64,000 bases of DNA from Ruditapes philippinarum (Eukaryota). The stretch is taken from assembly GCF_026571515.1 (NCBI RefSeq), contig NW_026865826.1, forward strand, positions 124,001-188,000, written 5' to 3'. Position 1 is the first letter of the stretch; each line of letters opens with the position of its first letter. Position numbers and translations under genes: made by a program. Below the pieces are notes generated by a model. The model was not told where the DNA came from, did no database searches, and was given only the letters and a program-made list of their open reading frames with translations. Below, one piece after another: positions 241 through 64,000 of this stretch.

Positions 241-3200
241 CTTTAGGTCAGCAAAGGCATGAATGGCTTGTTCCTGTTTCAAGTTTCCCCTGACCACATG
301 TAAGCACACATCATATACAGCTTGCCTGAAGTCATGACTACCAAGACTCGCCAACACTGTCTTATCTCCTACACCATTGCAGTAGCGTATACTGTGATAC
401 AAAAATAAAAACCCATTTAATACTTATATCATTATCAATGGCTTCTGTATGTAAATTTAGTGGAAGCATAAAGTGTGTTTCCAGGGCTCAAGCTAGGTTC
501 AAAATTTAGGGAGAAGTGGGGAGACTTTAGGGAGAAGTGAGGAGATTCAGTTATCGATGTTTGTTGTATGTTATCGCAATTATGTTGACTCACTGTACAT
601 ATCTTATTAAATGAATTGGATTTGTGTTACAACAGAATATTCAATTTTAATTTAAAAGTAGTTTGAAACAAGTAATAAGAATGAGTATCATGTAATGCAA
701 CCATTGCATTAAATGAAGATAAAAAAGCCATAGTTGATTCCTATCATGGATCATATCATGGGTGGATTAACAGTTATTCCCTTCTGATTTAATATTAGAA
801 AGCTTGCACCGGACATTATATTCATATTCACTTATGTTGTAAAGAAAATGAAAGCAGATAACGAAAGAAACGATCTTTAATTAAACTTCATTTGTAATTA
901 ATACAGTGTAATACGCCGTCAATTTTATCAAATTTAACTCGTCGACAAAAAAGGTTATCATAACTTTCATTTAAAATTACCGTTACAGTTATATGTCGAG
1001 CGGTCCTCTTAATTCTGACAATCATTCGATAGTGAAAATTTAATTGACGTTTGATCCGTCCATCATAAATAATTGTTACGGGTAGTTGTATGTTAGCGAT
1101 TTAATGTTTGGCTTAATAATGTCGCCTCGATTAAAACGTGAATTACGATTGGTTTCTTGCACGTATCGGTAATGTCGCCGGGGGCGGAGTCTAATTGTTC
1201 CTCGAGTGTCTGTTAATTAGACTTTTATGACATGTTGGTAAACAAACGGATTAATGACATTTCGCGTTGATTGAGATGCATGACAGTCCCTTTTTCCGGC
1301 GGCGAGGGTAAACAAAGCAAACACACACAACATGTTATTCACAGTTATTGTTATGATGGTAATTTTCAATAATGGATCAATAAAATAGGGCGACTTCATC
1401 TTCGCTTTCATGTAGGATGTCGGCGAAGTCAGACGGAATTCGGCGACTATTTTGCCCGAATCGCCCACTAGCTCGAGCCCTGGTTTCTATATTTTCCTTG
1501 TCCTTATTTTCTTCTTTCATAGAGTTTCTCTATAAATTTCACATTTACGAAAAGCCAATGTATGATGTTGACACTTTTGGTCAATTCTTCACCATTTTGG
1601 TCAATTTGTCCTGAGCGAAAAAACTTGTTCTTATTTTGGTCAACTTCATACTAAATATTTTATCATATCAGGAAGAATTCAAGAGCCGTTAATATGACTG
1701 GGTGCTTGACTTTACTCAGTGCCGCTGTCCAATTGAAGTATACATTCTCTTTAGTTTATGAAATCATGATATTTCGTCTTTTAAACATTGTCAAAAATTA
1801 CAAAAATTGGTGGAAAGCAAGTTCTATGTTCTTGAATTGACTGTTATATTCTAGAATAAGCTTTGGTACTAAGCCAGGAGTATACGGAAGATTCATTCCA
1901 CTTTCGTTGGTTTATTATGTAACAAAATGGCCAAACACAAATAGCACTTTTGCAAAAAAGAATATGGTCCTTAATAAAAAGAGATGACCATTCTCTAAAA
2001 TACGGATTCATTGGCGCTCTACGGGGGACAGTAACTGGATATCTAATGTCACACAGCAGTGTTTTTTTTCACCAAAATATTCGGCGAAATTCTCCCCATT
2101 CCCCACTCAAAATAGTATGTTTTTTCCCCCCTCAAAGCTGAAATTTCCCCCTATAAAATGGCAGCCCAAGTTTGCCTGCAATGAATATCATTTTTTTTGC
2201 AACTAACTGCCGAAAAATGCTTTATTTTATGCCTGTAAGACTTACTGTTAAGCAAGGTTTTTCATATAGGTAAGGGGAGCTACTCCTGGTATCCCAACAA
2301 GTTTATCATGTGACACATCAATATTTTAGATCCGTATAAAAATCCCCCTCCTATTTCATTTTTCCCCCTCCAATGGGCACCGACCCCCTTCCCCCAAAAG
2401 TGAAAAAAAACACTGCACAGTGAGAAAAATGTGCAGCCTGAGGCTGACTGGGACTGGAACCCTTGGGATACCTTACTGCTGCTCTACTGACTGAGCTATC
2501 CGGCCACTTACACATCTTCTCCCCTAAATAATTAACAGTTCTAAACCATGACATACTCCCCTTCTATATTGAAATTCATCCTCGAATTTCTAATGGGTAC
2601 AGAGAAAAATGTGAAATTGGACTCGGAGCTTATACTATCACTGTCCCATGCTGGATGCCAAATGTCACAGGGTGAGATAAATGTGCAGCCCGACTGGGAC
2701 TCGATCCCCTGGACTCTAGGAAAAATGTTCAGCGGCTCTACCGCCTGAGCTATCTTGCCGCTTACACATCTTCTCCCCTAAAAAGTGAACAGTTCTGAAC
2801 CGTGTCATACTTCCCTGCTGTATTGAAATTTGTCCTCCAATTTAACAGAATTACAGAGCAATGTGAATTAAACTCTGAGCTATATTCACTAATTCAGTCA
2901 TGGTCCCCCATTGGGCGTCAAATGTCACAGGGTGAGAAAAATGTGCAGCCCAACCCGGAATTCCGTTCCGGGTCTCTACTGAGCTTTCCGGCCACTTACA
3001 CATCTTTTCCCCTAAATAGTGAACAGTTCTGAACCATGACATGTACAAATTTTGTCCTGAAAAATACATCTATCGATACAGGTGTCTAATCCAGGAGATT
3101 GCAGGAGACTTGGCTCATTCACATGATAGAGACTTTTCATCCGTAGACGCTTGTTTAATTGAAGTGCTTTGTATGAAGATAGACCCATCAGTTTTGTTCG

Positions 3201-3613
3201 GCAGTTACTTCTGTCATTAACAGGCATTCTATTGAATGTCAATTTGTTCTGGACATGTGACATTCCACAATATACAAAAATTAGTTGACGTATAGTTTGC
3301 ACAGTCAATTTAAATTGATGTATAAAATACTTAGAGCGGAATAAGAAGGGGCCCGACTCACATTATGCTAAGCGTCTGTGCATAAATTGATTATTCTGGA
3401 AATCAATTTTGTTTTCTTATTTTTTTTTCATTTGTCAGGAACAAAATACGAAAAAATAAAAGGAGATTACATTTTAATTTTACATCAAAATATTCTTAAA
3501 GAATAACAATATAAATCTGAAATAATGTATTAAAAGATTTGCACGTACAACTCTTGCTTTCCAGACTTTTCCCAAGATTTACAATGTTCAACCGTCACAC
3601 ACGACGCCGCCAT
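241..3613 (-). CDS. THOC2: THO complex subunit 2, first two coding exons (3549-3613, 241-391); gene continues off the left edge
   Basis: GT-AG splicing with matching phase 2 gives MAASCVTVEHCKSWEKSGKQEF-IRYCNG...HDFRQAVYDVCLHVVRGNLKQEQAIHAFADLK, resembling the recalled human THOC2 N-terminus ([24 protein letters not shown]...[24 protein letters not shown]). Confidence 0.9.
482..1482. mobile_element. Non-autonomous TIR DNA transposon (CAG termini, 5-bp TSD; hAT-like)
   Basis: TIRs cagggctcaagctag (482-496) / ctagctcgagccctg (1468-1482), 1 mismatch; flanking direct repeat GTTTC (477-481, 1483-1487); no transposase ORF. Confidence 0.8.
2047..3041 (-). mobile_element. Tandem three-LTR miniature LTR retrotransposon (TRIM) with tRNA-derived LTRs (Helenus/Cassandra-like architecture)
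   Basis: LTRs TGTCA...TG(A/T)CA at 2047-2553 (interrupted), 2663-2807 and 2923-3041. On the minus strand the LTRs at 2923-3041 and 2663-2807 are each followed by a tRNA-Lys-type PBS; those at 2663-2807 and 2047-2553 are each preceded by a purine tract. A-box and B-box lie inside the LTRs. Confidence 0.8.
2057..2415. mobile_element. MITE with 16-bp perfect TIRs and 5-bp TSD, nested in a TRIM LTR
   Basis: cagtgttttttttcac (2057-2072) / gtgaaaaaaaacactg (2400-2415); TSD CACAG (2052-2056, 2416-2420); removing it restores the LTR. Confidence 0.85.
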
Positions 3614-13000: not shown

Positions 13001-16000
13001 CCATTGACATAACTTTTTAATAAACCATACTGTAAAGATGTATGATGATGTAAAACATGTATCAAATTATATTTTGATATTACAGTAGGTAAGAGTGTGT
13101 CACCATCTAGGGAAAGACCGCCAGGTTTGATCCTGCTAGAGGAATATGTTACAGAGGAGTATGCTGCTGAAATTATTAAGTCTGTTAACTGGCAGGACGA
13201 TCATGTCAAAGGTATACTAGAACTACTAAATTAGAAACAATACCTTATGATGTTTTGTTTATAGATTCTATTTTTATTTTAAAATTGAATCATCTCCTGT
13301 TAATTCATGAGCTTCATCAGCGAGTAGTTTTTATAAATTTCCGACAACATTTCTGTATTTGTATTATTTGACATTGCGACATGAGGAGAATTTCTCAGCT
13401 CTCTTGGTGCTGTTATTTCTAATGAACATGTAAATCAATGTTGTCTAGTCTTGTTAAAACAAGACATACATGTAGGGTAGAAAGTACATTGTATAATGGA
13501 AAAGGAAAGTGAAAAGAAAGACCAAATGGCAAACTTTAAAACTACATGATATCATTTGATAGTACATGATTATTGTATACCGGTATGAGAGCCAGGTATA
13601 AGTGGTACTGTACATTGCGTACTGAAAAATTCATATGAAATTTAATAATAGGCAAACAAAAAAACCCATGAAAATGTCCTTTGTGGTAAAACTTCGAAAT
13701 TACATGCCCACATATTTATTTGAATTCACAGTATTTAATGAATTAGTTTTGGTATAAATTTAATGAAAAAACCCATTTTGATAAAAGTAGTAATGTATTA
13801 TGCTATTGTTGATTCTAATTTAATTTAAGGTCAGCAAGGTCAACTTAAGCATCGTAGAGTGAAGCATTATGGGTATGAGTTCAGATACGATATAAACAAT
13901 GTTGACCCAGATGAACCGTTACCTGAAGGTATACCAGATGTCTACAAGCCTTTATTGGATAAACTTATTGATAGTGGTGTGGTCAAACACTACCCTGACC
14001 AGCTGACCATTAATCAGTATCAGCCAGGACAAGGTTAGGTGAACATGGCTTAAATCATATTTCATAAGCTTATTTCACATATTAAACAATAACTTAATTA
14101 GCTTGGTTTATTCAGAAAATTATTTTAGTTTGATTGTGTAGGAAACTATAAGCTTATAGACACAATCTCGAAACTGTTCCTTGAACCAACCAGTACTGAG
14201 CAATGAGTGTAAAGTTTTTTGTTCAAAGAAACAACAACTTGACCTTGACGGGGTTTGTACCCATGCTGATAGCAATCAATTGATTGCTTAAATGTAGCTT
14301 GCAATTTCATTAAAAGGAGAAGCTGTGTTTTTGAACAATTTTAGGTAAGGCGACAAATTTGAAAATATCTGTTAACATGGCCAGATTTATGTATAGGTAA
14401 TTGGCTTTCTTGTCGTTTTTTTTGTAACATTTGTAAAAAAACCCTGCAAATACTGAGAATACTGATGCAAGCTGTACAAATAGTTGACTTGTGTCAATGT
14501 ATTAAAATTTATAATGTATTTCAGGCATTCCTCCCCATGTTGATACAACAACAGCATTTGAAGATGGTCTTATATCACTAAGTCTAGGATCCCAGGTATG
14601 CATTCTTCTTAAAACTTATAAAACAAATTCTAAATATAGACTGAATGGACTTGTAATTCTTGATTGTTTTCATATGACATCCAAAATTTAAGTTTCAGCC
14701 TGTTTCTCAGCCCGAAGATTATGAAAATTTGAATCACTTTTTGGCCTTGAAGGTGTTTATGTTGTATTTTAGATTTTGATAGAGTTTGTGTTGTATTTTA
14801 GGTATTGATGGAGTTCAGGCATCCAGATGGTAGACATTTGTCCGTACTTTTGCCACCTAGAAGTGTCTTAATAATGACAGGGGAATCAAGGTAATATATA
14901 TTTATAAGTTTTAGGATAATATAGATTGTGGTTATTTGTTTTACGTGATTGACCTCCTTTGCTATTTTGGTGTAAGCAACCATAACTATTTAGCTTTTGA
15001 TGATTATGGTCACTAACACAATGTTGGCTTTAAATCTGGCCAGGGACATTTATTATGCGCCCCGAAAAATTTCGGGGAAGCATATAGTCGTCGGGTTGTC
15101 CGTCAGTCCGTCCCAAATTCGTGTCCGGCCAATAACTTTGTTATTTGAAGTCGGATTTTAAAATTATTTCACAGAAATGATCACCATATTGAGACAACAT
15201 GTCGCGCGCAACATATGGTGCGCTACCTTGAAGGTCAAGGTCACAGCATGATCTTGCAGCAAAATCGTGTCCGGTCCATAACTTCATTATTTGAAGTCAG
15301 ATTTTAAAACTATTTCACAGAAATGATCACCATATTGAGACGACGTGTCGCGCCCAACATTTGGCTCGCTACCTTGAAGGTCAAGGTCACAGCATGACCT
15401 TGCAGCAAAATCGTGTCCGGTCCATAACTTCATTATTTGAAGTCGGATTTTAAAAATATTTCATAGAAATTATCACCATATTGAGACAACGTGTCGCGTG
15501 CAATATTTGGTTCGCTTCCTTGAAGGTCAAGGTCACAGCATGACCTTGCAGCAAAATCGTGTCCGGCCCATAACTTCGTTATTTGAAGTCGGATTTTAAA
15601 AATATTTCACAGAAATGATCACCATATTAAGACGACGTGTCGCGCGCAACATTTTGGTCGCTACCTTGAAGGTCAAGGTCACAGCATGACCTTGCAGCAA
15701 AATCGTGTCCGGCCCATAACTTCGTTATTTGAAGTCGGATTTTAAAAATATTTCACAGAAATGATCATCATATTGAGATGACGTGTCATGCACAACATTT
15801 GGGTCGCTACCTTGAAGGTCAAGGTCACAGCATGACCTTGCAGCAAAATCGTGTCCGGCCCATAACTTCGTTATTTGAAGTCAGCTTTTAAAACTATTTC
15901 ACAGATATGATCACCATATTGAGATGATGTGTCACGCGCAACATTTGGGTTGCTACCTTGAAGGTCAAGGTCACAGCATAATCATGCAGCAAAATCGTGT

Positions 16001-19000
16001 CCAGCACATAACTTCATTATTTGAAGTCGGATTTTACAACTATTTCACAGATATGATCACCATAATGAGACAATGTGTCGCGTGCAACATTTGGGTCGCT
16101 ACCTTGAAGGTCAAGGTCATGGCATAACCTTGCAGCAAAATCGTGTCCAGCCCATAACTTTGTTACTTGAAGTTGGATTTATCAACTATTTCACAGAGAT
16201 GATCACCATATTAAATCAACGTGTCACATGTAGCATTTGGGATGCTACCTTGAAGGTCAAGGTCACAGCATGACCTTGCAGCAAAATCATGTCCGGCCCA
16301 TAACTTCGTTATTTGAAGTTGGATTTTACAACTATTTCACAAAAATGATCACCATATTGAGACAATGTGCTGTGCACAACATTTGGGTTATTTTTACACT
16401 TTGAACTTTGTCTGTGACATAACTCTGACACTACAAGAGGTATACTTTCCTGTGTCCAAAACCTATTCGGGGAGCATCACCCGATGATTCTAGGACACAT
16501 GCCTCATATGTTTTGAAATGGTTGATATTTGCCCCCCCCCCTGCCCCCACCCCCCTGAAGAATTCTGAGACCCCCCTTCAACCCTCAGGTCTTAAAAAAT
16601 TGAAATTGAGGAAAATTGCCATTGAAATATTCTTTTCAACTTTGTCCTGTTCTCTTTATTTTAATATTCTGCCAAGTAATAATTTTAAGCAGTTTCTTTA
16701 GTAGTCTTAAACTTGTGTCAGTTCTATTATATGCATTATGTTCGCCCTTTTAAATGTTTAGGGGAGTAAATGTCCGGCCATCCAAAACAGTGCAAGGGGG
16801 CAAATATCTTTAAAACTCTGTTGCATTTCTTGTCTTCATTATCTAGGTATGTGTGGTCACATGGTATAACACCGAGGAAGTCCGATATTGTACCACTAGC
16901 TGACGGTGGTCTAACTCTTCTACAGAGAGAATTGAGAACTTCATTTACCTTCAGAAAACTTACTGGAGTTAAACCTTCACAATTAATCAGGTACTTTATA
17001 AAAAATGATCATGCTATTTATAAGTGTTTCAAAGTAAAGAAACATACAGATAATTTAGGACAGTGGGAACATAACAGTATCACATGAAATGGTAGAAAAT
17101 ATGAGCCACATCATGACAAAACCAACAAAATGGGTTTGCGACCAGCATGGATCCAGACCAGCGCGGATGCGCAGGCTGGTCTGGATCCATGCTGGTTGCA
17201 AACGCACTATGTTGGTTTTGTCATGACACGGCTCTTTTGTTGGTCATTTTGTCACCTTAGTGCAGTAATGGGTTAACGTTTTTTAAATTTAACAGGAGTA
17301 GATCTGTCACTGCACTTATATGATAATTTGTTTATTTGAATTTTTTCTTTACTAGAAACAAAACATTTAACCTTATCATTGTGGCTAGCATATATAATGT
17401 ATTGATATATTGATGAATGTATGCATGTATTCTAATTCAATTTTAAATGAGGGTCCATCCACCTTTTAAGGCACAAAAGCAGCTTTTGCTGTCAAGTATG
17501 GACCCTGGACATGTCACCAGCCCTTAAAGGGTTAATTTTGAAGCACTTAGTGGTGATAATTTACCTCCCTTTTCTGCAAAAGACTTTGTATTCTGTCATG
17601 GGAGGAAGCTTGCTATCGGAACATCTGTGGTTCTACTCAGGTGCCTGCCTAAGCCAGAAATAAAGTATGGATGTAAAGCTGGAAAATTGCCAGATGATTT
17701 TTACTGTTTTGATGGCAAAATAAGTTACCTGAGGAAGTGTTTGGGGTTCTATAGAGTCCAGATTTGGTGTTTTAAAGTTCTACATAATAACTCATGAAAA
17801 AAATAGAAATTTCAATTATAATGATATTTCAATGATATAATTGCGTGAAAACCAATGTTTACTTACTGAAGTCAGTGATTTGTAAATGTCTGTTTTTTTC
17901 AAGCAGTGATAAGCCAGATGTGCCGTGTAATAATTCTACTGCCTCAGAGCTGGAGAAAAAACATGTTTATCAGGTAACCCTTCATGTAAACTAGTAATAG
18001 TGTTATTCAGCTGATTTGTAATGGTATTGTTTCAAGCTTTCAGGAATTTGCCTGAAGTTCAGGTTTTAAGGTTTTCTCACAGATTGAACTGGCACCCAAA
18101 GCTTTTAACCAGCTTTGTACCAAAATACCATTATTAAATGTTTATTATACCTTATAAAATTGTATTTTAATTGTTTAACAACTTTTTATTTATGTTGTCT
18201 CATTACTGTGATCAGTAGGTGAAGTTTGTCATGGTATTGACCACTAAAAAGTTTTTCTTTCCAATAATTAGGGAAAGCTTTGACCTTCCTAAAATTTTGG
18301 TTTGGATGTTAGTCATCAACAGTAGGTGACCTGTATTGATTTTGAAGTCATTTTATCAAAGGTTAAAATCACAGTGTCACTGTGTATATTTAAAAAAAAA
18401 TAACCTGAGAAGAAATAAAAGCCTAAGTTTATGAAACTTTGTTACAACATGACCTATAAGATTTAAGGTTATTCAAGTATTTCCTCATTTATGAAGGTTG
18501 TGAAGCTTGTTATTTATAATATATTATTCCATGTATATTTATATTACTTATTAAAGATAGATTAAGCCTCAGGAATAAATGAAAGGTTTCTTTGTATTTT
18601 CACATTTCTAGTTTTATTCATGTTATATAGGTATATGAAGAAATAGCAGATCATTTTAGTGGAACAAGACATACGCCTTGGCCTAATATTGCCGAGTTTC
18701 TCAAGAAACAATCTCCAGGTTCTCTACTTGTTGATGTTGGTTGTGGTAATGGGAAATATTTGGGAGTCAACAAAGACTTGTTTGAGGTAGATATGCATGA
18801 TTTACATGTTTCTTAATGTGTAAATCTTTTTACTGATTTTGTGCCATAATACACAAGTACAAAGGATAAATACACCTTTGTTGAAAAATTTAATGTTTTT
18901 ATATTCTCAATATAAGAAAAATTGATAGTTTCATTGTAGGAAGTTCACAACACAAATACAAATTCCATAATCTTGGTCAAGGGAAATAACTCGATTTGTA

Positions 19001-21619
19001 AATTAATTTCCTTGACTTATTATAAATTAAACATCTTTTGTGATACACTTTTATGAAAAAACATTGGACATACCCGATTCATTTCACAGCTGAATCTATA
19101 TATGTTTCTGATGAAAACTAATTTAATAATGTAATGCAATTTACAGTAATTTTCTTTCTAACTACATTTTCAAAGAAAAAAAAGAGAGCTTTTGTCATGA
19201 CTCTCTTGTATGCATGAGCATTGGTAAATCTATTGTCAAGGTCCATTTTCTCTAAAACTATAAACAACTATACTTGGTATACATGTATATTGTCATAAAA
19301 GGACACCATTTCAAAGGACAGATAATTTTAAAATTATTTTTTGCAAAGTTATGCCCCCTTCTGCTACTGTGTTTTTTTTTTTCACTATCCAGCATTGAGA
19401 AAAGTTGATTGCGCTGTCTGCGGACAGGTCTTGTTTTTGCATAATATCACCCAGCTAAAATACTAATTCCATAAATATATGAATGAAAACACAATAACAA
19501 AAGTAATTTCCTTATTCTAATTTTTATATAAACTTGATTTACAGCACCTAAATATCATATCTATGTATCATATCTATGTATCATATGTTGGACAATTTTT
19601 ACTTAGATAGGATCAGACAGGAGCTACAACTTAGCTAGGATAGTTCGGGAGAGGAAGTTTCAAGTTTACGTCGGTGATATTTTATCTATACCACTGAGGG
19701 CAGAAGTGGCCGATGTGTGTATATGTATAGCTGTAATACATCATTTATCCACGCAGGTTGGTACAAAACTTTATGACAAAGAGGTTTAGTTTAAATAGAG
19801 GATATTGAATGAGTGTAGGTTTAATACTAAATTTATTGAACAAGTTAAATAAAACCATATTATTCGAGCCTGTGGCGAGCATGATATTGTTTTATTCAAC
19901 GAGTTTAATAAATTTTGTGTTGAATCTACACAAATATAATATTCTATTTATCACATATATAAAATATGAATGGATTGGTAAACTGTAAAAAAGAGTCATT
20001 TTTCATTTGATGCGCCTATAGTGTATCACTAACATTAGCACGCTTTAATACAATATTTTAACAAAATGCAAGTGATGTCATGTCAATGTGTTATTACACT
20101 AGTGTAATATTGTTCTTATTAAATTGCTTTATTTCTCTCCTGTGTCGCGTTTTATGCGGTAAACATATTTATTTAAGCTTGATTGCCAAACAAGTTTTTG
20201 CAAATAATATTAATCACTTAGAGTCAGCTTCCTGGTACCAAACAGTACAAGTGTCATATGAAGAAACATGATTGTGGCCCGAGTAGGGATCAAAGCCATG
20301 ATCCCTGGATTGAGAGGCAGACACATTAACCACTAGGCAACCGTTCCACTTAAGATGTTTAAATCACTTGTTCTTGTAGGAGATGTTGAATTATTTTACA
20401 TGAAAAAAAAAGCTTTACAACAGATGTATTGTTTCACCCATGTGCTAACTTTATACATTCATGTTTGTTTGTACCAATATTGCTTGGAGAAATGAGTATG
20501 ACATTTTACATTGTAACTCTTAATAACTAAAAATTAAAGAAATAGATAAATGATAATGCAAATCTATGAAAAAAGTAAATGCTGTCTTTTTAAAAACAAG
20601 TTGTTTTTGACAACAATCACTCAAGAGAAAATTTAAAATGGTGTTATTTAATAATAAAGTTTGCGTGTAAATTTTATATCTGTTCAAGAAACCAGTCTTA
20701 ACTTCAATACTTATAAAGCTATTGAACATTGAAACATTATATGTGGATGCACTATGATGAGTTCTACCAGTCAGACCAGAAAATAAGTAATAGATTAAGA
20801 AAAAATTATTAGGTAATTATTACTGGTATTTGAGAGTCTCAGCCAGGAAGTGCTTTGTTAAGCCTTTGTTTTCCAGATTTATTATTTAACCATATTATTC
20901 CAAGACTCTTTTTTGGCTTATATTTTGACATGCATATATGTAATTTTTATATAATGCAGGAAAGAAGAAAGCGAGCAATATGTGAATTATTAAAGGTTCT
21001 TAGACCAGGTGGGCAGGCATTGATTTATGTGTGGGCAATGGAGCAAGAAATGAACAAAGTCAAGTCAAAATATTTAAAGGATAACAAGTCTAGCAATGCA
21101 AAATTTGATGTAGAAAACCAGTCTTGTGAAAATTCAAAAGGTGATATTGTAAACCACTCTCAAGAAAATTCAAAATGTGAGTCAGAAAACCAGTCTTGTG
21201 AAAATTCAAAGTGTGAGACAGAAAACCAGTCCTGTGAAAGTTCAAACTGTCATACTGAGAATCAGTCTCATCAAAGTAAAGAAAAAAATATGAATGAAAA
21301 TATAGTTTCTGGTTGTAGTAACTTACAAAATAATATAAAGACTGGTAATATAAAGACTGATAATACAGACCTATCTTCTGATCTTAAGAAATTGGAAGTT
21401 CATGTGAACAGGACACAGTTTAAACAGCAAGATCTGTTAGTGCCATGGCAACTTAAAGGCAAGGAGAAAAAGTCTGAGTCTAGTGCAACATTCCATAGGT
21501 TTTATCATGTTTTTCAAAAGGGTGAATTGGAATCCTTATGTGAAAGTGTGAAGAATTGTTCAATTATTAAAAGTTACTATGACCAGGGTAATTGGGCGGT
21601 GATATTAGAAAAGATATAG
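10061..21619 (+). CDS. ALKBH8: Alkylated DNA repair protein alkB homolog 8 (tRNA wobble-uridine methyltransferase/hydroxylase; RRM-AlkB-MTase), about 677 aa
   Basis: Eleven GT-AG exons in consistent phase: 10061-10180, 12550-12793, 13086-13211, 13830-14033, 14525-14595, 14802-14890, 16847-16990, 17904(or 17907)-17973, 18631-18786, 19607-19756, 20960-21619. Motifs: [95 protein letters not shown]. Confidence 0.95.
10430..10593 (-). mobile_element. tRNA-derived SINE-like element
   Basis: Minus strand has A-box-like tagttagttgg and B-box gggttcaatcc. Confidence 0.5.
11876..12499. mobile_element. piggyBac-like MITE in ALKBH8 intron 1
   Basis: TTAA TSDs (11872-11875, 12500-12503); TIRs cccattgcttcat / atgaagtaatggg (1 mismatch). 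Confidence 0.85.
14098..14290 (-). mobile_element. Meta-domain-type SINE, degraded (same family as 62091-62316)
   Basis: Shares aaccaaccagtactgagcaatgagtg...aaggaaacaac core with the 62.1 kb copy. Confidence 0.65.
15050..16483 (+). mobile_element. Helentron-like element with about nine 146-bp tandem repeats (ALKBH8 intron 6)
   Basis: 5' hairpin ccccgaaaaatttcgggg, GTCC microsatellite, 146-bp period (ttgaaggtcaaggtcacagcatg), subterminal repeat ttcggggagcat; 3' terminal hairpin missing. Confidence 0.8.
17103..17234. mobile_element. 132-bp palindromic MITE (GAG...CTC termini)
   Basis: Arms gagcc..catgacaaaaccaaca...ccagcatggatccagaccag / ctggtctggatccatgctgg...tgttggttttgtcatgacacggctc. Confidence 0.75.
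19793..20145. mobile_element. Hairpin-type non-autonomous element (family of 37066-37420)
   Basis: About 160-bp imperfect hairpin starting taaatagaggatattgaatgagtg, centred on cgagcctgtggcgag; inverted homologue at 37258-37420. Confidence 0.6.
20160..20348 (-). mobile_element. Meta-type SINE, second family
   Basis: Reverse complement of 60057-60205; tRNA-like head and gtactg..tggt.ccaggaagc.gactc core. Confidence 0.6.
21107..21272 (+). repeat. Coding 36-bp / 12-aa tandem repeat ([12 protein letters not shown]) in the ALKBH8 last exon
   Basis: [55 protein letters not shown]. Confidence 0.85.
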
Positions 21620-24409: not shown

Positions 24410-25521
24410 AACAAGAGCCGGTTGAACCGGGTGATGCTCCCCGAATAGGTTTTGGACACAGGAAGGTATACCTCTTGTAGTGTCAGAGTTATGTCACAGA
24501 CAAAGTTCAAAGTGTAAAAATAACCCAAATGTTGTGCACGACACATTGTCTCAATATGGTGATCATTTTTGTGAAATAGTTGTAAAATCCAAATTCAAAT
24601 AACGAAGTTATGGGACGGAAATGATTTTGCTGCAAGGTCATGCTGTGACCTTGACCTTCAAGGTAGCAACCCAAATGTTGCATGCGTCACATGGATTAAA
24701 TATGGTGATCATCTCTGTGAAATAGTTGCTAAATCCGACTTCAAGTAACGAAGTTATGTGCCGGACATGATTTTGCTGCAAGGTCATGCCTTGACCTTGA
24801 CCTTCAAGGTGGCGACCCAAATGTTGCGCGCGACACATTTTCTCATTATGGTGATCATTTCTGTGAAATAGTTGTTAAATCCGACTTCAAATAATGAAGT
24901 TATGGGCCGGACACGATTTTGCTGCAAGGTCATGCTGTGACCTTGACCTTCAAGGTAGCATGCCAAATGTTGCGCGACAATTCGTCTCAATATGGTGATC
25001 ATTTCTGTGAAATATTTTTAAAATTCGACTTCAAATAACGAAGTTATGGACCGGACACAATTTTGCTGCAAAGTCATGCTGTGACCTTGACCTTCACGGT
25101 AGCGAGCCAAATGTTGTGCGCGACACGTCGTCTCAATATGGTGATCATTTCTGTGAAATAGTTTTAAAATCCGACTTCAAATAACAAAGTTATGGGCCGG
25201 ACACAATTTTGCTGCAAGGTCATGCTGTGACCTTGACCTTCAAGGAAGCGACCCAAATGTTGCGCGCGACTCATTTAGTCTTAATATGGTGATCATTTCT
25301 GTGAAATATTTTTAAAATCCGACTTCAAATAATGAAGTTATGGACCGGACATGATTTTGCTGCAAGGCCATGCTGTGACCTTGACCTTCAAGGTAGCGAG
25401 CCAAATGTTGCGCGCGACACGTCGTCTCAATATGGTGATCATTTCTGTGAAATAGTTTTATAATCCGACTTCAAATAACAAAGTTATGGGCCGGACACGA
25501 ATTTGGGACATACGTACGGAC
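24410..25521 (-). mobile_element. Second, inverted copy of the 146-bp-array Helentron-like element
   Basis: Reverse complement of 15100-16483; keeps the terminal hairpin ccggttgaaccgg plus aacaag but lacks the 5' end. Confidence 0.8.
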
Positions 25522-26776: not shown

Positions 26777-27772
26777 ACAAGAGCTGTCGCGAAAAGGTTT
26801 CTTAAGCATGCAGGTATTATGAAAAGAAAAGAGAATGAAAGTAACTAATTTATTATTGTATCTGTAATATAATAATCTCTAATTGTGTTCGCATGAACCT
26901 TCAAAATACAAGTGTGACCTTGACCTTTGAAGAAGTGACGTGGTTCCTGGACGAGACAAAATGTTGTTATGAGATAGACATTTGTGCCAAATTATTTCAT
27001 AATCCCTCAATGCATCACAAAGTTACAGTCTGGACACGATTGTTGTGTGAGTGGGGACAAATGGACATGAGCTTAAGCCGCGACACATTGTCTTGATGTG
27101 GTAGACATTTGTGCCAAGTTAATTTAAAATCCTTCAATGCATGACAAAGTGCATTCAAGACATGAATGTGTATCTTCAAAATCTTCTAGAGAGAAAGAGT
27201 ACCTTCAAACTACAAGTGTGACCTTGATCTTGAAGTTAGGGACATGGGTCTTTGTCGCGACATGTCGTCTGATGTGGTAGACATTTATGCCTAGTTATTT
27301 CAAAATCCTTTAATGCATGACAAAGTTACAGCCCGGACAAGAATGTGTGTACCTATAAACTCTAATTGTGATAAAGTGAACTTCAAAATGGTAGTGTGAC
27401 CTTGACCTTCGAGGTAGGAAATTGATTATTGGACGCGACACATCCTCTTGATGTCGTAGACATTTATGCCTAGTTATTTTAAAATCATTTGATGCATGAC
27501 AAAGTTACAGTCTGGACACGAATATGTGTACCTATTTACTCTAATTCCGATAATGTGAAACTTCAAAATGATAGTCTGACCTTGACCTTTGAGGTAGGGA
27601 CGTGGTTCTTTTACGCGACACATCATCTTGATGTGGTAGACATTAGTGCCAAGTTATTTTAAAATCACTCAATGTATGACAAAGTTACCGTCCAGACACT
27701 AATGAAGTGGGACAGACAGATGGACAGACAGACGATGCGATTATATTTTGCCTCCCTTCAAGCGCATAAAAA
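26777..27772 (-). mobile_element. Helentron-like element with about 180-bp units
   Basis: aacaagagctgtc end; repeated gtgtgaccttgacctt; (GACA)n at 27711-27732. Confidence 0.6.
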
Positions 27773-48379: not shown

Positions 48380-49447
48380 TTAAAGCACTTCAGATCGTTG
48401 AGAAGACTGTGAACTTCTTGAGTTGAAAGAGTAAGTGGTTGACCTATGAAGCCTACAACCTTTACGGCATAAACAGTTGACAAAATCTGCCCGAAACTTG
48501 GAGCCACACAATATGTAAAGAACAAAGTTAATAGCGTTGTTTATATACATAAATAAATGCAAAACGGCTTCAAGAAGCATAAGTCTTGCATACCGCCGTG
48601 ACGTCATAGTTTCCATTGGGAACCAGTACGGCTGTCCAATCGCAAAAATCGTGAAAGGAGAAACACATACAATAAAAGCCAAACTGAGAATAATCGCTAC
48701 TTTTGTAAAGTATGAAACAGTTTTCGTCATTGAATCAGACTCGCTTCTCCTTGATCTGTTTCCAATTTTGCGTTTGAATACACTTGATTTCCGAAAGTGG
48801 CGGCTATTTTTTATTTTCCTTAGAACAATGATGTTTCCAGTTAGTAAAACGCAAAATGGAATTGCAAATGCAAAAGCGAAATCAATCCATGGCCAGATTT
48901 TGAACATGAAATGCTCATGATGTTTCATAGCTTGACAGCTTGTTTTGTTGAATACTTCATGATAATCTAGTGTAAATCCATAAAGAAGATGACTGTTCAA
49001 ACAGGCTAGACATACAACACACAGCAATGATAAAATCAAAACATTTCTTCTCGTAAATATACGCTTGACCTTATGAATGTATAGTACGCTACAAATACGT
49101 TCAGTTGTCAGAATTACTAAAATCCAAGGTGACAGCTGCATTAAAAAGTATGTAAAATACACGTGTACTTTACATGTTACGCTAGAAGAGCTCCGAACGT
49201 CTACTTCAAATGCATACTGTAACCATTTCACAAACACAACGAAGACCAGTATAAGACTGTCAGTAAAAGTAAGAAATATCAACATTACACCAGTTGAAGT
49301 CTTCCTGTGTTTCACCTGTGCTAGAATTATCAAAGAAGCAATGTTTCCGGTCAATCCAAAGATGATTAAAATTGGAGGATATATAACTTTTATATTTTGA
49401 GCCACTCGATAGTCCTGATAGTCCTCCAAATCCATGTTGTTTAACAT
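48380..49447 (-). CDS. Intronless class A GPCR, copy 2 (355 aa; 24 aa differences from copy 1)
   Basis: Same motifs as copy 1; intact ORF. Confidence 0.92.
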   Translation of the reverse strand: MLNNMDLEDYQDYRVAQNIKVIYPPILIIFGLTGNIASLIILAQVKHRKTSTGVMLIFLTFTDSLILVFVVFVKWLQYAFEVDVRSSSSVTCKVHVYFTYFLMQLSPWILVILTTERICSVLYIHKVKRIFTRRNVLILSLLCVVCLACLNSHLLYGFTLDYHEVFNKTSCQAMKHHEHFMFKIWPWIDFAFAFAIPFCVLLTGNIIVLRKIKNSRHFRKSSVFKRKIGNRSRRSESDSMTKTVSYFTKVAIILSLAFIVCVSPFTIFAIGQPYWFPMETMTSRRYARLMLLEAVLHLFMYINNAINFVLYILCGSKFRADFVNCLCRKGCRLHRSTTYSFNSRSSQSSQRSEVL

Positions 49448-50070
49448 GTGCTTAACCTTCGTATAACAATAATATCTAAGTGATCCGTTTCTTTGTACTG
49501 TATCTAAATCTTACGGTGTCATTTTTTGTTATGCAGGAGCAATCATTATCAAACAATACATAATACATTAAAACTTCTCGTTCATAGGCCAAAAGTTGGT
49601 CAATACTTCAACATTATCATTTTCACAAAATGCACTTGTAATATTGCGTACTTCCGAACTCATAAGTACTTTTGAGCATCCTTCTTTATAATGTTATTCC
49701 TAATATTAGTTAGTATTTACAGCGTTATATTTACACTATAACGTACATCCGGACTTATTTAAACTTAACTTCTGTTTAAAATTATGATATGCGGCAAAGT
49801 GTCAAGTGATAAATTTTGCATGCATACATAAGCATATTATCTAGTACACGAGAAGAAAAAGGTTTAAGAAAATATTCATCTTTGCCGCTATTTGAAGCTC
49901 CTTTAATATTTATCAATGCATTTCATCTTTTTCTTTTCCAAATAGATTTGTAAAATATAATCTTTTACTGAAACGATTAGGAATGAACACGTCTGTGTCA
50001 AAATATTGCCTCGAAATATCGCAATATGTCGCTTATACTTTCTCTTTCTAAGAAGTTAACTGATTTATAA

Positions 50071-52497: not shown

Positions 52498-53715
52498 CAA
52501 GGCGTGTTCAAATATTCATGAATGCAATTGGGTCAATTTTCAGAAGTTCAAAATATTCACCACCATGTGATATACATAGTTTTTGTCTTTTAATTCAATT
52601 TATAAATGCGTTTTCATAATCTTTTCGAGGTATACTGTCCAGACACTGAACAATAGCCGAACCGAGATTTTTTCGCGTTTGATATTTCCAGCATGGTAGA
52701 AAAATAGTCACAAGAAGCAAGATCTGTCAAATAAGGAGAGCAAGGAAGCTCAACAACCGTTTCCTGTTTAAGATATTCTCGTACAATGGCCGCTTTGTGT
52801 GACGTAGCACTGTCATGCAACAACATGACACCACGGAGACCAGTTGCTGGGCGACGGTTTTGAATTATTTCTTTAATTTATGATGGATGTTGCCTTCGTA
52901 AAACTTGGCATTTACAGATTCATCCTTTGGTACTGCAATTTGAATTGGTAAAAAAAGTTACATATGTAATATTTTTTGACACTCATGGTGCCTTTTTCAA
53001 GTCCTTTGACTAACTTTGGTTGCCCATATTTTGTTATGTATCTTTCGCTTGGGCTCATAAAAGTGAAACCACGTCTTATCGCCAGTGATGATTCTTGCAA
53101 AAGATCGATTGTTGCATTAAGAGAACTGTTTTAACAATTGTTTGGAGATTCTTACCCGAGCAAGTTATTGCTCTTTTGTACGATGGGGGTATCCCTCTGG
53201 CATTTATCCTTCTCATTTTTAAATCACGTCTGAGAATTGTATGAGCGGCTCCTGCATTTATTATAAAACTTGCATCAAAAGCGATCAAATCCTTAACTTT
53301 TTCAACCATTTTTGGCAAAGTTGCAGTTTTAGGACGGCGTAATTTTACTGAATCAACACCACTTTGAAATTTCTTATACCACCGTGTGACAGATGAAAAA
53401 GCAAATTCATTGTTCCCATAAACACGACATATTTCATTAAATATGTCTTTCGCCTGTATACCAAGGTACAGCGGTTCTTGATATTGGACCGTATTTGGTC
53501 TGAGAAAGAAGACCTTTTCCAAACCATTAGTATACACGAGTAGATAGCCTTAATCGATTTATAGCCAAAGCTAGACTGAACGAACTGATTTACACATGCA
53601 TTGTATCAATTGAGAGCTTTCACAACCATCTTTGCGATACATGTACATAGTTCGTGCAAAACGTGGTTCAAAGTGACATATTGGCCTAGTTGCATTCATA
53701 TTTGAACACCCTTGG
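52498..53715 (-). mobile_element. Full-length defective mariner transposon; transposase pseudogene
   Basis: TA TSDs; TIR core gtgttcaaatat / atatttgaacac; frameshifted HTH (VTRWYKKFQSG), IITGDKTW, LLHDSATSH, SPYLTDLASCDY (YSPDLAPCDY-like). Confidence 0.88.
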
Positions 53716-62734: not shown

Positions 62735-63229
62735 TTAACATTTCTTGTTAGAATATCGTTTCGTTTCATCCATCTTTTTATCCGTCAATCGAACCAGTCC
62801 ACTCAGGCTTCGAACAGCAAAAAGAAGGCCATCGTTTTTTCTATTCGTATCAGTCACTGTCTCTTCAATGGTTCTGGTAGAAGAAGCGATTTCCTTAGTT
62901 GTTTGATCGATATTATCCACGTCTCCCGAAATATTTTCAGAAGTAGTACGTATGGAGTTTGTTTGACCATTTACTTTGTCCGTTGTTGTCTTTATCTCGT
63001 CTGTTTTCCCATTCAGCGAATTTAGAAGGTTGCGGATAGAGTCTACTTTTCCGTTCATGTCGTTCACAGTTCCTTGAATTTCGTTAGTTTTAGTGTTTGT
63101 GTCAGAGGCCGTTTTCCCAATTCCATCAAGTTTGCCATTAATTTCTCGATCAGAAGCTTGCAAACCATTTACCGCTGATTGAAGAGTGCTAATAGCAGTG
63201 TTGATAGCATTTAGTTGATTAACAATCGA
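62735..63229 (-). CDS. Terminal exon (164 aa) of a paralogous coiled-coil protein; upstream exons not identified, probably beyond the window
   Basis: Acceptor ttttacAG at 63230-63231, phase 0 as in the paralogue; gapless alignment with the 58175-58645 protein (DTNTK, MN..(I/V)DSI, N.KTD, TT.EI, TNRK.D). Confidence 0.75.
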   Translation of the reverse strand, partial: SIVNQLNAINTAISTLQSAVNGLQASDREINGKLDGIGKTASDTNTKTNEIQGTVNDMNGKVDSIRNLLNSLNGKTDEIKTTTDKVNGQTNSIRTTSENISGDVDNIDQTTKEIASSTRTIEETVTDTNRKNDGLLFAVRSLSGLVRLTDKKMDETKRYSNKKC

Positions 63230-64000
63230 CTGTAAAAGATATGTTTATCAATACAAACAGGAGAGAAATTGCACCTGATTTTTATTATTAAAATTTTTTT
63301 TTGGTCATGATTATCAAAATCAACATTAAAAAACAAATTTGATTTATTTCAAATAGTTCCGATAAAAATATGTTATTCGTTATTTTTTTTATATTTTGCT
63401 TTGCAGTTTGCAAAATCATCTGTCTTAATAAACGTTTTGGTCGACTGTTAAGAATTTTTCATATTATTTAAGATAGAACTATTTGGTATACAAGTTTTCA
63501 AAAGCTTAAGAGCACATCGTAATATTGTTTTGGGAAACATGTTCGAACCGACAATGATTTGCCTTTACCATCTGTATAGATTAGAATGAAATAGAATCCC
63601 TAAAAAGTTCAAAACGGTACATTTGAAAATGTTGCAGGCTCGGTTTGATTGAGCCTGTTCATGGACAGTACTGGAATATGCAGGCTACTATCCAAGCCCC
63701 GTATCACCGGCTAAAGCAGAATTCAAATTTTAAACATGGAAAAGGTGATATTTTGAATTGAGGCACATCCGCAGATGTGTTCTTACGTCGGTTATCATGG
63801 AACCTTCAATGAAAAACGTTAGTGCCATTCCATGATAAGCGGCGTATGGTTCCCGAGTAAAATATTTCATGTGCACTAAACGGGCAAACAATAGACAAAA
63901 GTAAATCAAATGAAATTTTGAAAGGGGATCAGAGCTTATTAAGCCTGCATACAACATATAAGCTATCAAAAAATATGATAAACAAGATCAACAAGGAAAG

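Follow-up and report, generated by a model that had tools for sequence, protein, structure and literature searches.

The window analysed here, a 64-kb stretch of DNA (64,000 nt) taken as a whole, carries on its minus strand a compact array in which three LTRs alternate with two short internal regions. The layout LTR-internal-LTR-internal-LTR had been proposed in a first-pass annotation, and every one of its coordinates has been verified. In the order in which the minus strand is read, the elements of the array and its 3' flank are:

2923..3041, minus strand: LTR A, 119 nt, TG...TGACA, with a 26-nt loss inside its tRNA-like unit
2808..2922, minus strand: internal region 1, 115 nt, non-coding, the family's majority type
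2903..2920, minus strand: PBS 1, a tRNA-Lys(CTT) site, decayed
2822..2841, minus strand: predicted pre-PPT hairpin, copy 1, 7 bp, mean pair probability 0.96
2808..2820, minus strand: polypurine tract (PPT) 1, from the sequence
2663..2807, minus strand: LTR B, 145 nt, the shared middle LTR, best preserved
2762..2780, minus strand: U3 arm, complementary to the T-run/U5 arm (~2689-2668; equivalent places in LTRs A and C)
2686..2759, minus strand: tRNA-like unit of LTR B, A box 2752-2741, B box 2707-2697, Rfam RF00005 14.3 bits
2554..2662, minus strand: internal region 2, 109 nt
2660-2643, minus strand: PBS 2, decayed, worse than PBS 1
2571..2590, minus strand: predicted pre-PPT hairpin, copy 2, 7 bp, mean pair probability 1.0
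2565-2554, minus strand: PPT of internal region 2
2416..2553, minus strand: main part of LTR C, A box retained, B box damaged
2057..2415, no strand assigned: MITE, 359 bp, 16-bp perfect TIRs (16/16 bases match)
2047..2056, minus strand: duplicated 5 bp and final 5 nt of LTR C
2035..2046, minus strand: 3' flank resembling the start of internal region 2 (9/12 match, background 4e-4, one of six such tests)

The window also contains an intronless GPCR ORF, whose best named relatives are in Ruditapes philippinarum (81%, 52% and 50%), Mercenaria mercenaria (53-61%) and Mya arenaria (43%); this one gene family points to a venerid clam as the likely host.

LTRs A, B and C measure 119, 145 and 143 nt (143-145 nt, with the third at 119, had been claimed), the figure for LTR C being the sum of 2553-2416 and 2051-2047, that is, minus the insert and one copy of the duplication; the internal regions measure 115 and 109 nt, as claimed. 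All three LTRs start with TG and end with TGACA, which bears out the TG...CA ends attributed to them; the PBS adjoins the 5' LTR and the PPT adjoins the 3' LTR. Identity over aligned columns is 87% for LTRs A and B (103/119), 83% for B and C (113/137) and 87% for A and C (103/119), with BLAST E values of 1e-18 to 1e-22, so the repeats are not due to chance; the two internal regions are 75.5% identical (80/106). Preservation is best in the first 48 and last 27 nt of the LTRs; between these, LTRs A and C have a damaged tRNA-like stretch. One TRIM unit comes to ~400 bp (two short direct repeats, <1 kb). No ORF of at least 110 aa lies inside the TRIM, one stop-free frame of the flank overlapping its first 30 nt, and no further copy was found within the 64-kb window.

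The MITE, which belongs to a separate repeated family, had been placed 10 bp from the end of LTR C, and the 10-nt remnant at 2047..2056 agrees. It is flanked on both sides by CTGTG, a 5-bp duplication at 2420-2416 and 2056-2052, and would have landed in the last LTR after the array had formed. The array itself, as had been remarked, lacks a clear TSD: its 4-nt flanks match at 1/4 positions, and flanks of 3-8 nt are never identical. The sequence directly after LTR C resembles the start of internal region 2, which suggests that the array may once have extended into another unit at this point. The upstream flank is marginally similar to the internal 3' end (background 0.045), a match left uncounted, and a search for older units in either flank gave 0/10 local alignments that beat shuffles.

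The claim that the LTRs contain a tRNA-like unit stands for LTR B, in which both boxes are found, and needs amending for the damaged LTRs A and C: a combined A-box and B-box match is kept in LTR B only, and LTR A carries its 26-nt central loss. A functional tRNA gene is rejected, ARAGORN calling 0 genes and the scores of LTRs B and C with the Rfam tRNA model (14 bits) lying under its gathering score of 29. An HDV-like/CPEB3 ribozyme is likewise rejected (18.1 bits where the gathering score is 35, and 28 positions of the model core left without a match). TTTTT after the unit in two of the three LTRs had been reported correctly: it is present in A and C, where LTR B has TTTAT. LTR B also has an extra T5 within its tRNA-like unit, and this one is specific to the copy. 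In family reads the T5 after the unit is the majority state (row 2678), the internal T5 is absent (row 2725), and the B box is intact (loose end at 2950; 330 reads in X21, 11 in X23).

These and the following statements about the family derive from reads placed on 1750-3340 at 80% likeness, drawn from DNA runs X1 and X4, which come from different studies, and from RNA runs X21 and X23. The median TRIM bin has ~1,700 times the DNA depth of the median flank bin in both X1 and X4 (range 60-5,700x), a ratio that is not a copy number and is taken only as high repetition. Depth drops ~1,000-fold or more between the bins at 3045/3046. Loose ends accumulate at 3041/3042 (104 contigs in X1, 163 in X4) and at 2663 (206 reads in X21), with unrelated loose ends also at 2804. 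At the TRIM edges the loose ends agree with one another at only 0.40-0.43, so the flanks are unrelated; loose ends within the TRIM agree at 0.56-1.0 and continue into family sequence. The difference between edge and internal loose ends establishes that family copies begin at TGT and finish at TGACA. The first-pass annotation had staked its reading on boundaries of this kind, and other copies do begin and end at the LTR termini amid unrelated flanks. Its tRNA-Lys PBS is also upheld by the family: most copies have the canonical G at 2918 (94% of depth in X1, 97% in X4, 573/656 reads in X21, 23/23 in X23), the window's own PBS copies having decayed. The primer sequence is that of tRNA-Lys(CTT) in Fig. 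S2 of PMC10886601, where the same PBS type is found in Gypsy-125_CGi and many bivalve Helenus. The 5' half of internal region 2 is of a rarer type (X1 depth 251 vs 12,019 in the matching internal-1 bin), which makes it likely that the array joins two different elements. No empty-site read or contig was found among the joints listed, and an exact 21-nt LTR-end pattern had 0 matches in metagenome contigs and 0 in prokaryote genomes.

The ends of the LTR are partly complementary, the U3 arm (about LTR positions 28-46) to the T-run/U5 arm. Equally stable duplexes arose in 3 (LTR B), 36 (LTR A) and 84 (LTR C) of 2,000 shuffles, and 10/3,000 genomic 48-mers equalled the duplex of LTR A. In folds of two putative unit transcripts the partner of the arm is the right arm of the upstream LTR (16.0 and 11.9 expected pairs), its own LTR contributing none (0.0); the RNA would thus be closed. 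Among the three LTRs no two-sided change was found in the stem (0/37 pairs), LTR C (z +0.67) and the B-to-C unit fold no better than shuffles, and the duplex of a sister family, described below, is not significant (471/2,000 shuffles). The oyster element Helenus-4_SaGl has, by eye, a comparable complement in different letters.

A second predicted structure lies just before each PPT. It is a hairpin with a purine-rich loop, and the 18-nt motif of copy 2 ends 18 nt before LTR C; in ten X23 reads (loose end 2813) the hairpin is a perfect inverted repeat around AGGA. Among published bivalve Helenus internal sequences, 24/51 have a stem of at least 6 bp around an RGGN loop, a count made by eye that ignores kinship, and these comprise at least eight different stem sequences with pairing kept. 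Similar stems were seen, again by eye, in nemertean and wasp Helenus families. The consulted text of PMC10886601 gave no match for hairpin, palindrome or inverted, and word finds in the available parts of PMC10886601, PMC13570524, PMC3605345, PMC3059260 and PMC10085805 returned no pre-PPT hairpin, only a T-rich box before the PPT; a literature search, with subscription papers and current Repbase entries beyond its reach, also yielded no description. A PPT-side box is reported as common to retrozymes and Gypsy elements (PMC4918200).

Scanning metagenome contigs for the 18-nt motif gave at least 117 loci. Among the matches listed, a PPT and TG follow the motif at 16-20 nt in 19/113 testable loci and lie on its other side in 0/113; these 19 loci represent 13 distinct contexts (among the matches listed), were picked by motif and do not come from the window's host. 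In all four loci scanned for domains (L015, L021, L045 and L068), SH3_Tf2-1 and/or Chromo lies upstream, above Pfam's cut-off, which identifies them as Ty3/Gypsy 3' ends. These chromodomain Gypsy 3' ends resemble the TRIM in placing the 18-nt motif 16-20 nt before the 3' LTR, followed by the PPT, and differ from it in being protein-coding and in showing no BLAST likeness to the window's LTRs. Since they are not from the window's host, they are not its helper. Selection by motif accounts for the invariance of the motif among the compared loci, but not for its spacing or for the flanking domains. The chromodomain frame of L068 ends immediately ahead of the motif, which, together with the non-coding nature of the TRIMs, argues for a nucleic-acid role of the hairpin. 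Purine tetraloops bind retroviral nucleocapsid proteins. Packaging or setting up of the PPT would be the likely role of the predicted hairpin, and, as a structure shared with coding elements, it is a candidate for the signal that a helper recognises. PMC10886601 raises the question of how recognition works for a TRIM that has LTRs different from its helper's. A broader proposal, which we advance tentatively and regard as possible rather than probable, is that the hairpin would act as a cis signal common to Ty3/Gypsy RNAs (in Gag packaging or in setting up the PPT primer), kept from chromodomain Gypsy to animal Helenus, and that hairpin and U3-U5 clamp together would make up the minimal set of signals with which a Pol III transcript of 330 nt takes over a Gypsy particle. 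At a fixed spacing in TRIMs and coding Gypsy elements alike, the hairpin offers a small testable target and a route to the helper in the host genome.

One cluster among these matches, 28/117 of the metagenome loci listed, is a second tRNA-LTR TRIM; it shares the hairpin but has another PBS, and its LTR and internal region measure 152 and 110 nt. ARAGORN recognised tRNA-Ala in its LTR units at 7/7 loci tried. Both ends are TG and CA in 4/28 of the loci (among the matches listed); two of these, L035 and L051, have exact 4-bp TSDs (2/2 scorable), L051 being, like the window copy, an array of three LTRs. The other two, L101 and L114, belong to longer arrays, with another PBS or PPT directly beside them. 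At the extrapolated ends of the decayed loci L004, L020, L061, L063 and L098 no TSD was found. This sister TRIM supports the mechanism of the class, the TSDs being scored there and not on the window's own family.

Very probably, then, the locus is a decayed 3-LTR tandem of a gene-less, highly repeated TRIM that carries a tRNA-like unit in each LTR and is likely to be transcribed by Pol III and mobilised by Ty3/Gypsy machinery. By way of the A and B boxes, TFIIIC and Pol III would begin transcription close to LTR position 47, which divides the LTR into a U3 of ~46 nt, an R made of the tRNA-like unit as far as the T5 run, and a U5 of small size. For a full template of ~320-340 nt, Pol III would have to pass the first T5 and terminate at the second. 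In the predicted fold of this RNA, its 5'-terminal U5 arm pairs with the U3 arm close to the 3' end, which would close the molecule and place the two R copies side by side for strand transfer. Gypsy Gag or RT would recognise the RNA, most likely through the purine-loop hairpin before the PPT; host tRNA-Lys would prime at the PBS and the PPT would prime the plus strand (the sites are present as sequence, and the mechanism is that of established LTR biology), after which Gypsy integrase would insert the TG...CA cDNA with a 4-bp duplication. The array itself may be the product of recombination that joined two distinct elements, or it may have lost another unit. Either history would explain the unlike internal regions and the missing TSD, and recombination of neighbouring LTRs is one described route to 3-LTR arrays (PMC7215508).

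That the locus is a TRIM at all could be disputed, since a tRNA-derived SINE or a satellite with a unit of ~250 bp might merely resemble LTR-internal-LTR. The head-to-tail period of 234-260 nt, the tRNA-like head, the window copy without a TSD and the wide occurrence of tRNA-derived SINEs in bivalves (PMC11481361) would all suit such an origin, but the tRNA unit begins 46 nt inside the repeat and not at the 5' terminus, the LTRs outnumber the internal regions three to two, PBS and PPT adjoin the LTRs with no A-rich or simple-repeat tail, TRF does not call the array, the family ends at TG and TGACA in unrelated flanks, and 4-bp TSDs have already been seen in the sister family. We accordingly consider the SINE or satellite origin the most improbable of the alternatives. 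Annotators would nonetheless be expected to mislabel such high-copy TRIMs as SINE, satellite or tRNA.

The polymerase and the primer of the tandem TRIM are each open to a different reading. RNA polymerase II, starting in U3 or reading through from a host gene, might make the template, with the tRNA-like unit a structural R region or passenger. The RNA runs, whose libraries are poorly suited to the Pol III question, contributed 6,558 (X21) and 147 (X23) reads on both strands, of which 90% and 67%, respectively, continue into unlike sequence, and the table of start and end pile-ups is empty for both runs. This pattern, which counts in favour of the Pol II reading, is that of passive inclusion in host transcripts; it neither shows nor excludes Pol III products, passive read-through being expected for any high-copy repeat. 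The T5 directly after the unit in the 5' LTR should halt Pol III early and shorten its transcripts, which counts against a Pol III template, and the Pol III activity of Helenus is given as not validated by Kojima (2024; PMC10886601). Against Pol II stand the B box kept in family reads, the A and B boxes conserved across Helenus (PMC10886601) and the report that Cassandra, the 5S analogue, starts inside the 5S unit of its 5' LTR. On this evidence a Pol II template is unlikely, though it keeps some weight. Far less probable is a self-made primer, in which the tRNA-like unit would be excised, given a CCA end and annealed to the PBS. In LTRs A and B the last 22 nt of the unit do form a modest pairing with the PBS (-16.5 to -18.2 kcal/mol; 13-41/1,000 shuffles as good), but LTR C lacks such pairing (304 and 394/1,000 shuffles), the helix is missing from both predicted unit folds, any two tRNA 3' ends are expected to be somewhat alike, and the family PBS follows the tRNA-Lys 3' end of Fig. 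S2 in PMC10886601, a source in which Kojima reports finding no such complementarity.

The first-pass description, a tandem TRIM with tRNA-derived LTRs, tRNA-Lys-primed and Helenus-like, holds in the light of the family's ends and canonical PBS base, and its remark that tRNA-bearing TRIMs were described only recently is also right: Helenus, defined as TRIMs with a tRNA-derived LTR segment, was published by Kojima in 2024 (PMC10886601). Judged by sequence features, the window TRIM is of Helenus type and closest by eye to the oyster families Helenus-3_CGi and -4_SaGl. As seen by eye, Helenus-3_CGi, -3_CVi, -4_SaGl and -4B_SaGl have LTRs of 139-140 nt that start with TGTCA and end with CCTGTGACA (143-145 nt in the window), and internal regions of 103-120 nt (109-115 nt in the window); they also share with it, by eye, the A/B-box unit with its T-run, the tRNA-Lys PBS, the pre-PPT hairpin and a PPT ending as in the window's internal region 2. 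Helenus-3_CGi has the exact 18-nt hairpin motif. The four oyster families differ from the window TRIM in U3 sequence, and the window copy, unlike them, is a 3-LTR tandem without a TSD. Animal Helenus have 4-bp TSDs and PBS types shared with Gypsy elements, and tandem arrays are mentioned for one fish (zebrafish) family (PMC10886601).

The 51 bivalve Helenus families, many of them Lys-primed, all come from Pteriomorphia, whereas the host of the window TRIM likely belongs to Veneridae (Heteroconchia); in the parts consulted, PMC10886601 is silent on whether venerids were searched. Two 10-nt words from the LTR had 0 matches in the available supplement of that paper, where a line break or one mismatch would hide a match, which suggests that the window TRIM is not a listed Helenus family, and a literature search that left Repbase aside found no clam Helenus. 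The TRIM is thus likely to be a new family in a new host lineage, the venerids, for a class published in 2024, and not a new kind of element. On the same tentative footing as the broader proposal above, occurrence in a venerid would place the origin of this Helenus lineage as far back as the ancestor shared by oysters and clams, or would show transfer between them.

Two other systems bear comparison. The biv-TRIM of Satovic (2019; PMC6934838) is likewise a TRIM of venerid and other clams with solo and tandem forms, but it has repeats of 202-218 bp, an internal region of 77-80 bp and no canonical PBS, and its tRNA likeness is reported in the internal region only; identity with the window TRIM is rejected on repeat size, internal size and PBS, and the two are different families. 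Cassandra of plants (Kalendar 2020; PMC7215508) likewise has a small-RNA-derived Pol III unit in its LTR, arrays with shared LTRs and predicted pairing between parts of the LTR. Its unit is a 5S rRNA and not a tRNA, its transcription has been shown, and the units of its arrays are near-identical, whereas those of the window are 75-87% alike.

Within the third LTR of the three-LTR tandem TRIM (LTR C, minus strand, window 2553-2416 and 2051-2047) lies an insertion:

2057-2415: MITE of 359 bp, bounded by 16-bp TIRs and flanked by a 5-bp duplication

This MITE belongs to a repeated family separate from the TRIM, its read depth being ~100-500 times that of the flank, and RNA reads on it are skewed by strand in X23, one of the two RNA runs aligned to the region. 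The rearranged part of LTR C is also covered by a weak match to the CPEB3 ribozyme (window 2423-2474; 18.1 bits vs 35, Rfam), which is taken to be a chance match and rejected because the ribozyme core is unmatched.

The predicted purine-loop hairpin motif that precedes the PPT of the window TRIM recurs in metagenome contigs. Among the matches listed, L015, L021, L045, L068 and 15 other loci are Ty3/Gypsy 3' ends, in which the same motif stands 16-20 nt before the LTR; SH3_Tf2-1 and/or Chromo domains are present in the four named loci, which were the ones scanned. Also among the matches listed, locus L051 and 27 related loci constitute a second TRIM family with tRNA-bearing LTRs. Its LTRs are 152 nt long, with units in which ARAGORN calls tRNA-Ala(TGC); the PBS is of a non-Lys type, the PPT is weakly purine-rich, the TSDs are 4-bp and TA-rich, and tandems are frequent among these 28 loci.

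Elsewhere the window holds candidate coding frames and tandem arrays:

20834-21619, plus: frame of 261 aa
29481-32198, minus: stop-free frame of 905 aa
40076-41206 and 48380-49510, minus: tandem pair of intronless 7-TM GPCR ORFs that closely resemble each other
53076-53549, minus: frame of 157 aa
58121-58645 and 62735-63244, opposite orientations: two frames of 170-175 aa
6102-7444, 15114-16388, 24523-25505 and 27079-27703: tandem arrays with units of 145-180 bp

Host placement is based on the first GPCR ORF. The 905-aa frame has a run of C2H2-type zinc-finger motifs, recognized by eye, and the two 170-175-aa frames resemble one another in their T/N/S-rich, coiled-coil-like sequence. The 261-aa frame, which contains a 36-bp coding tandem repeat, appears to resemble the C-terminal methyltransferase exon of ALKBH8; the 157-aa frame likewise appears to resemble a decayed N-terminus of a mariner-type transposase. 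The arrays are of the kind that occurs within non-autonomous DNA elements of bivalves.
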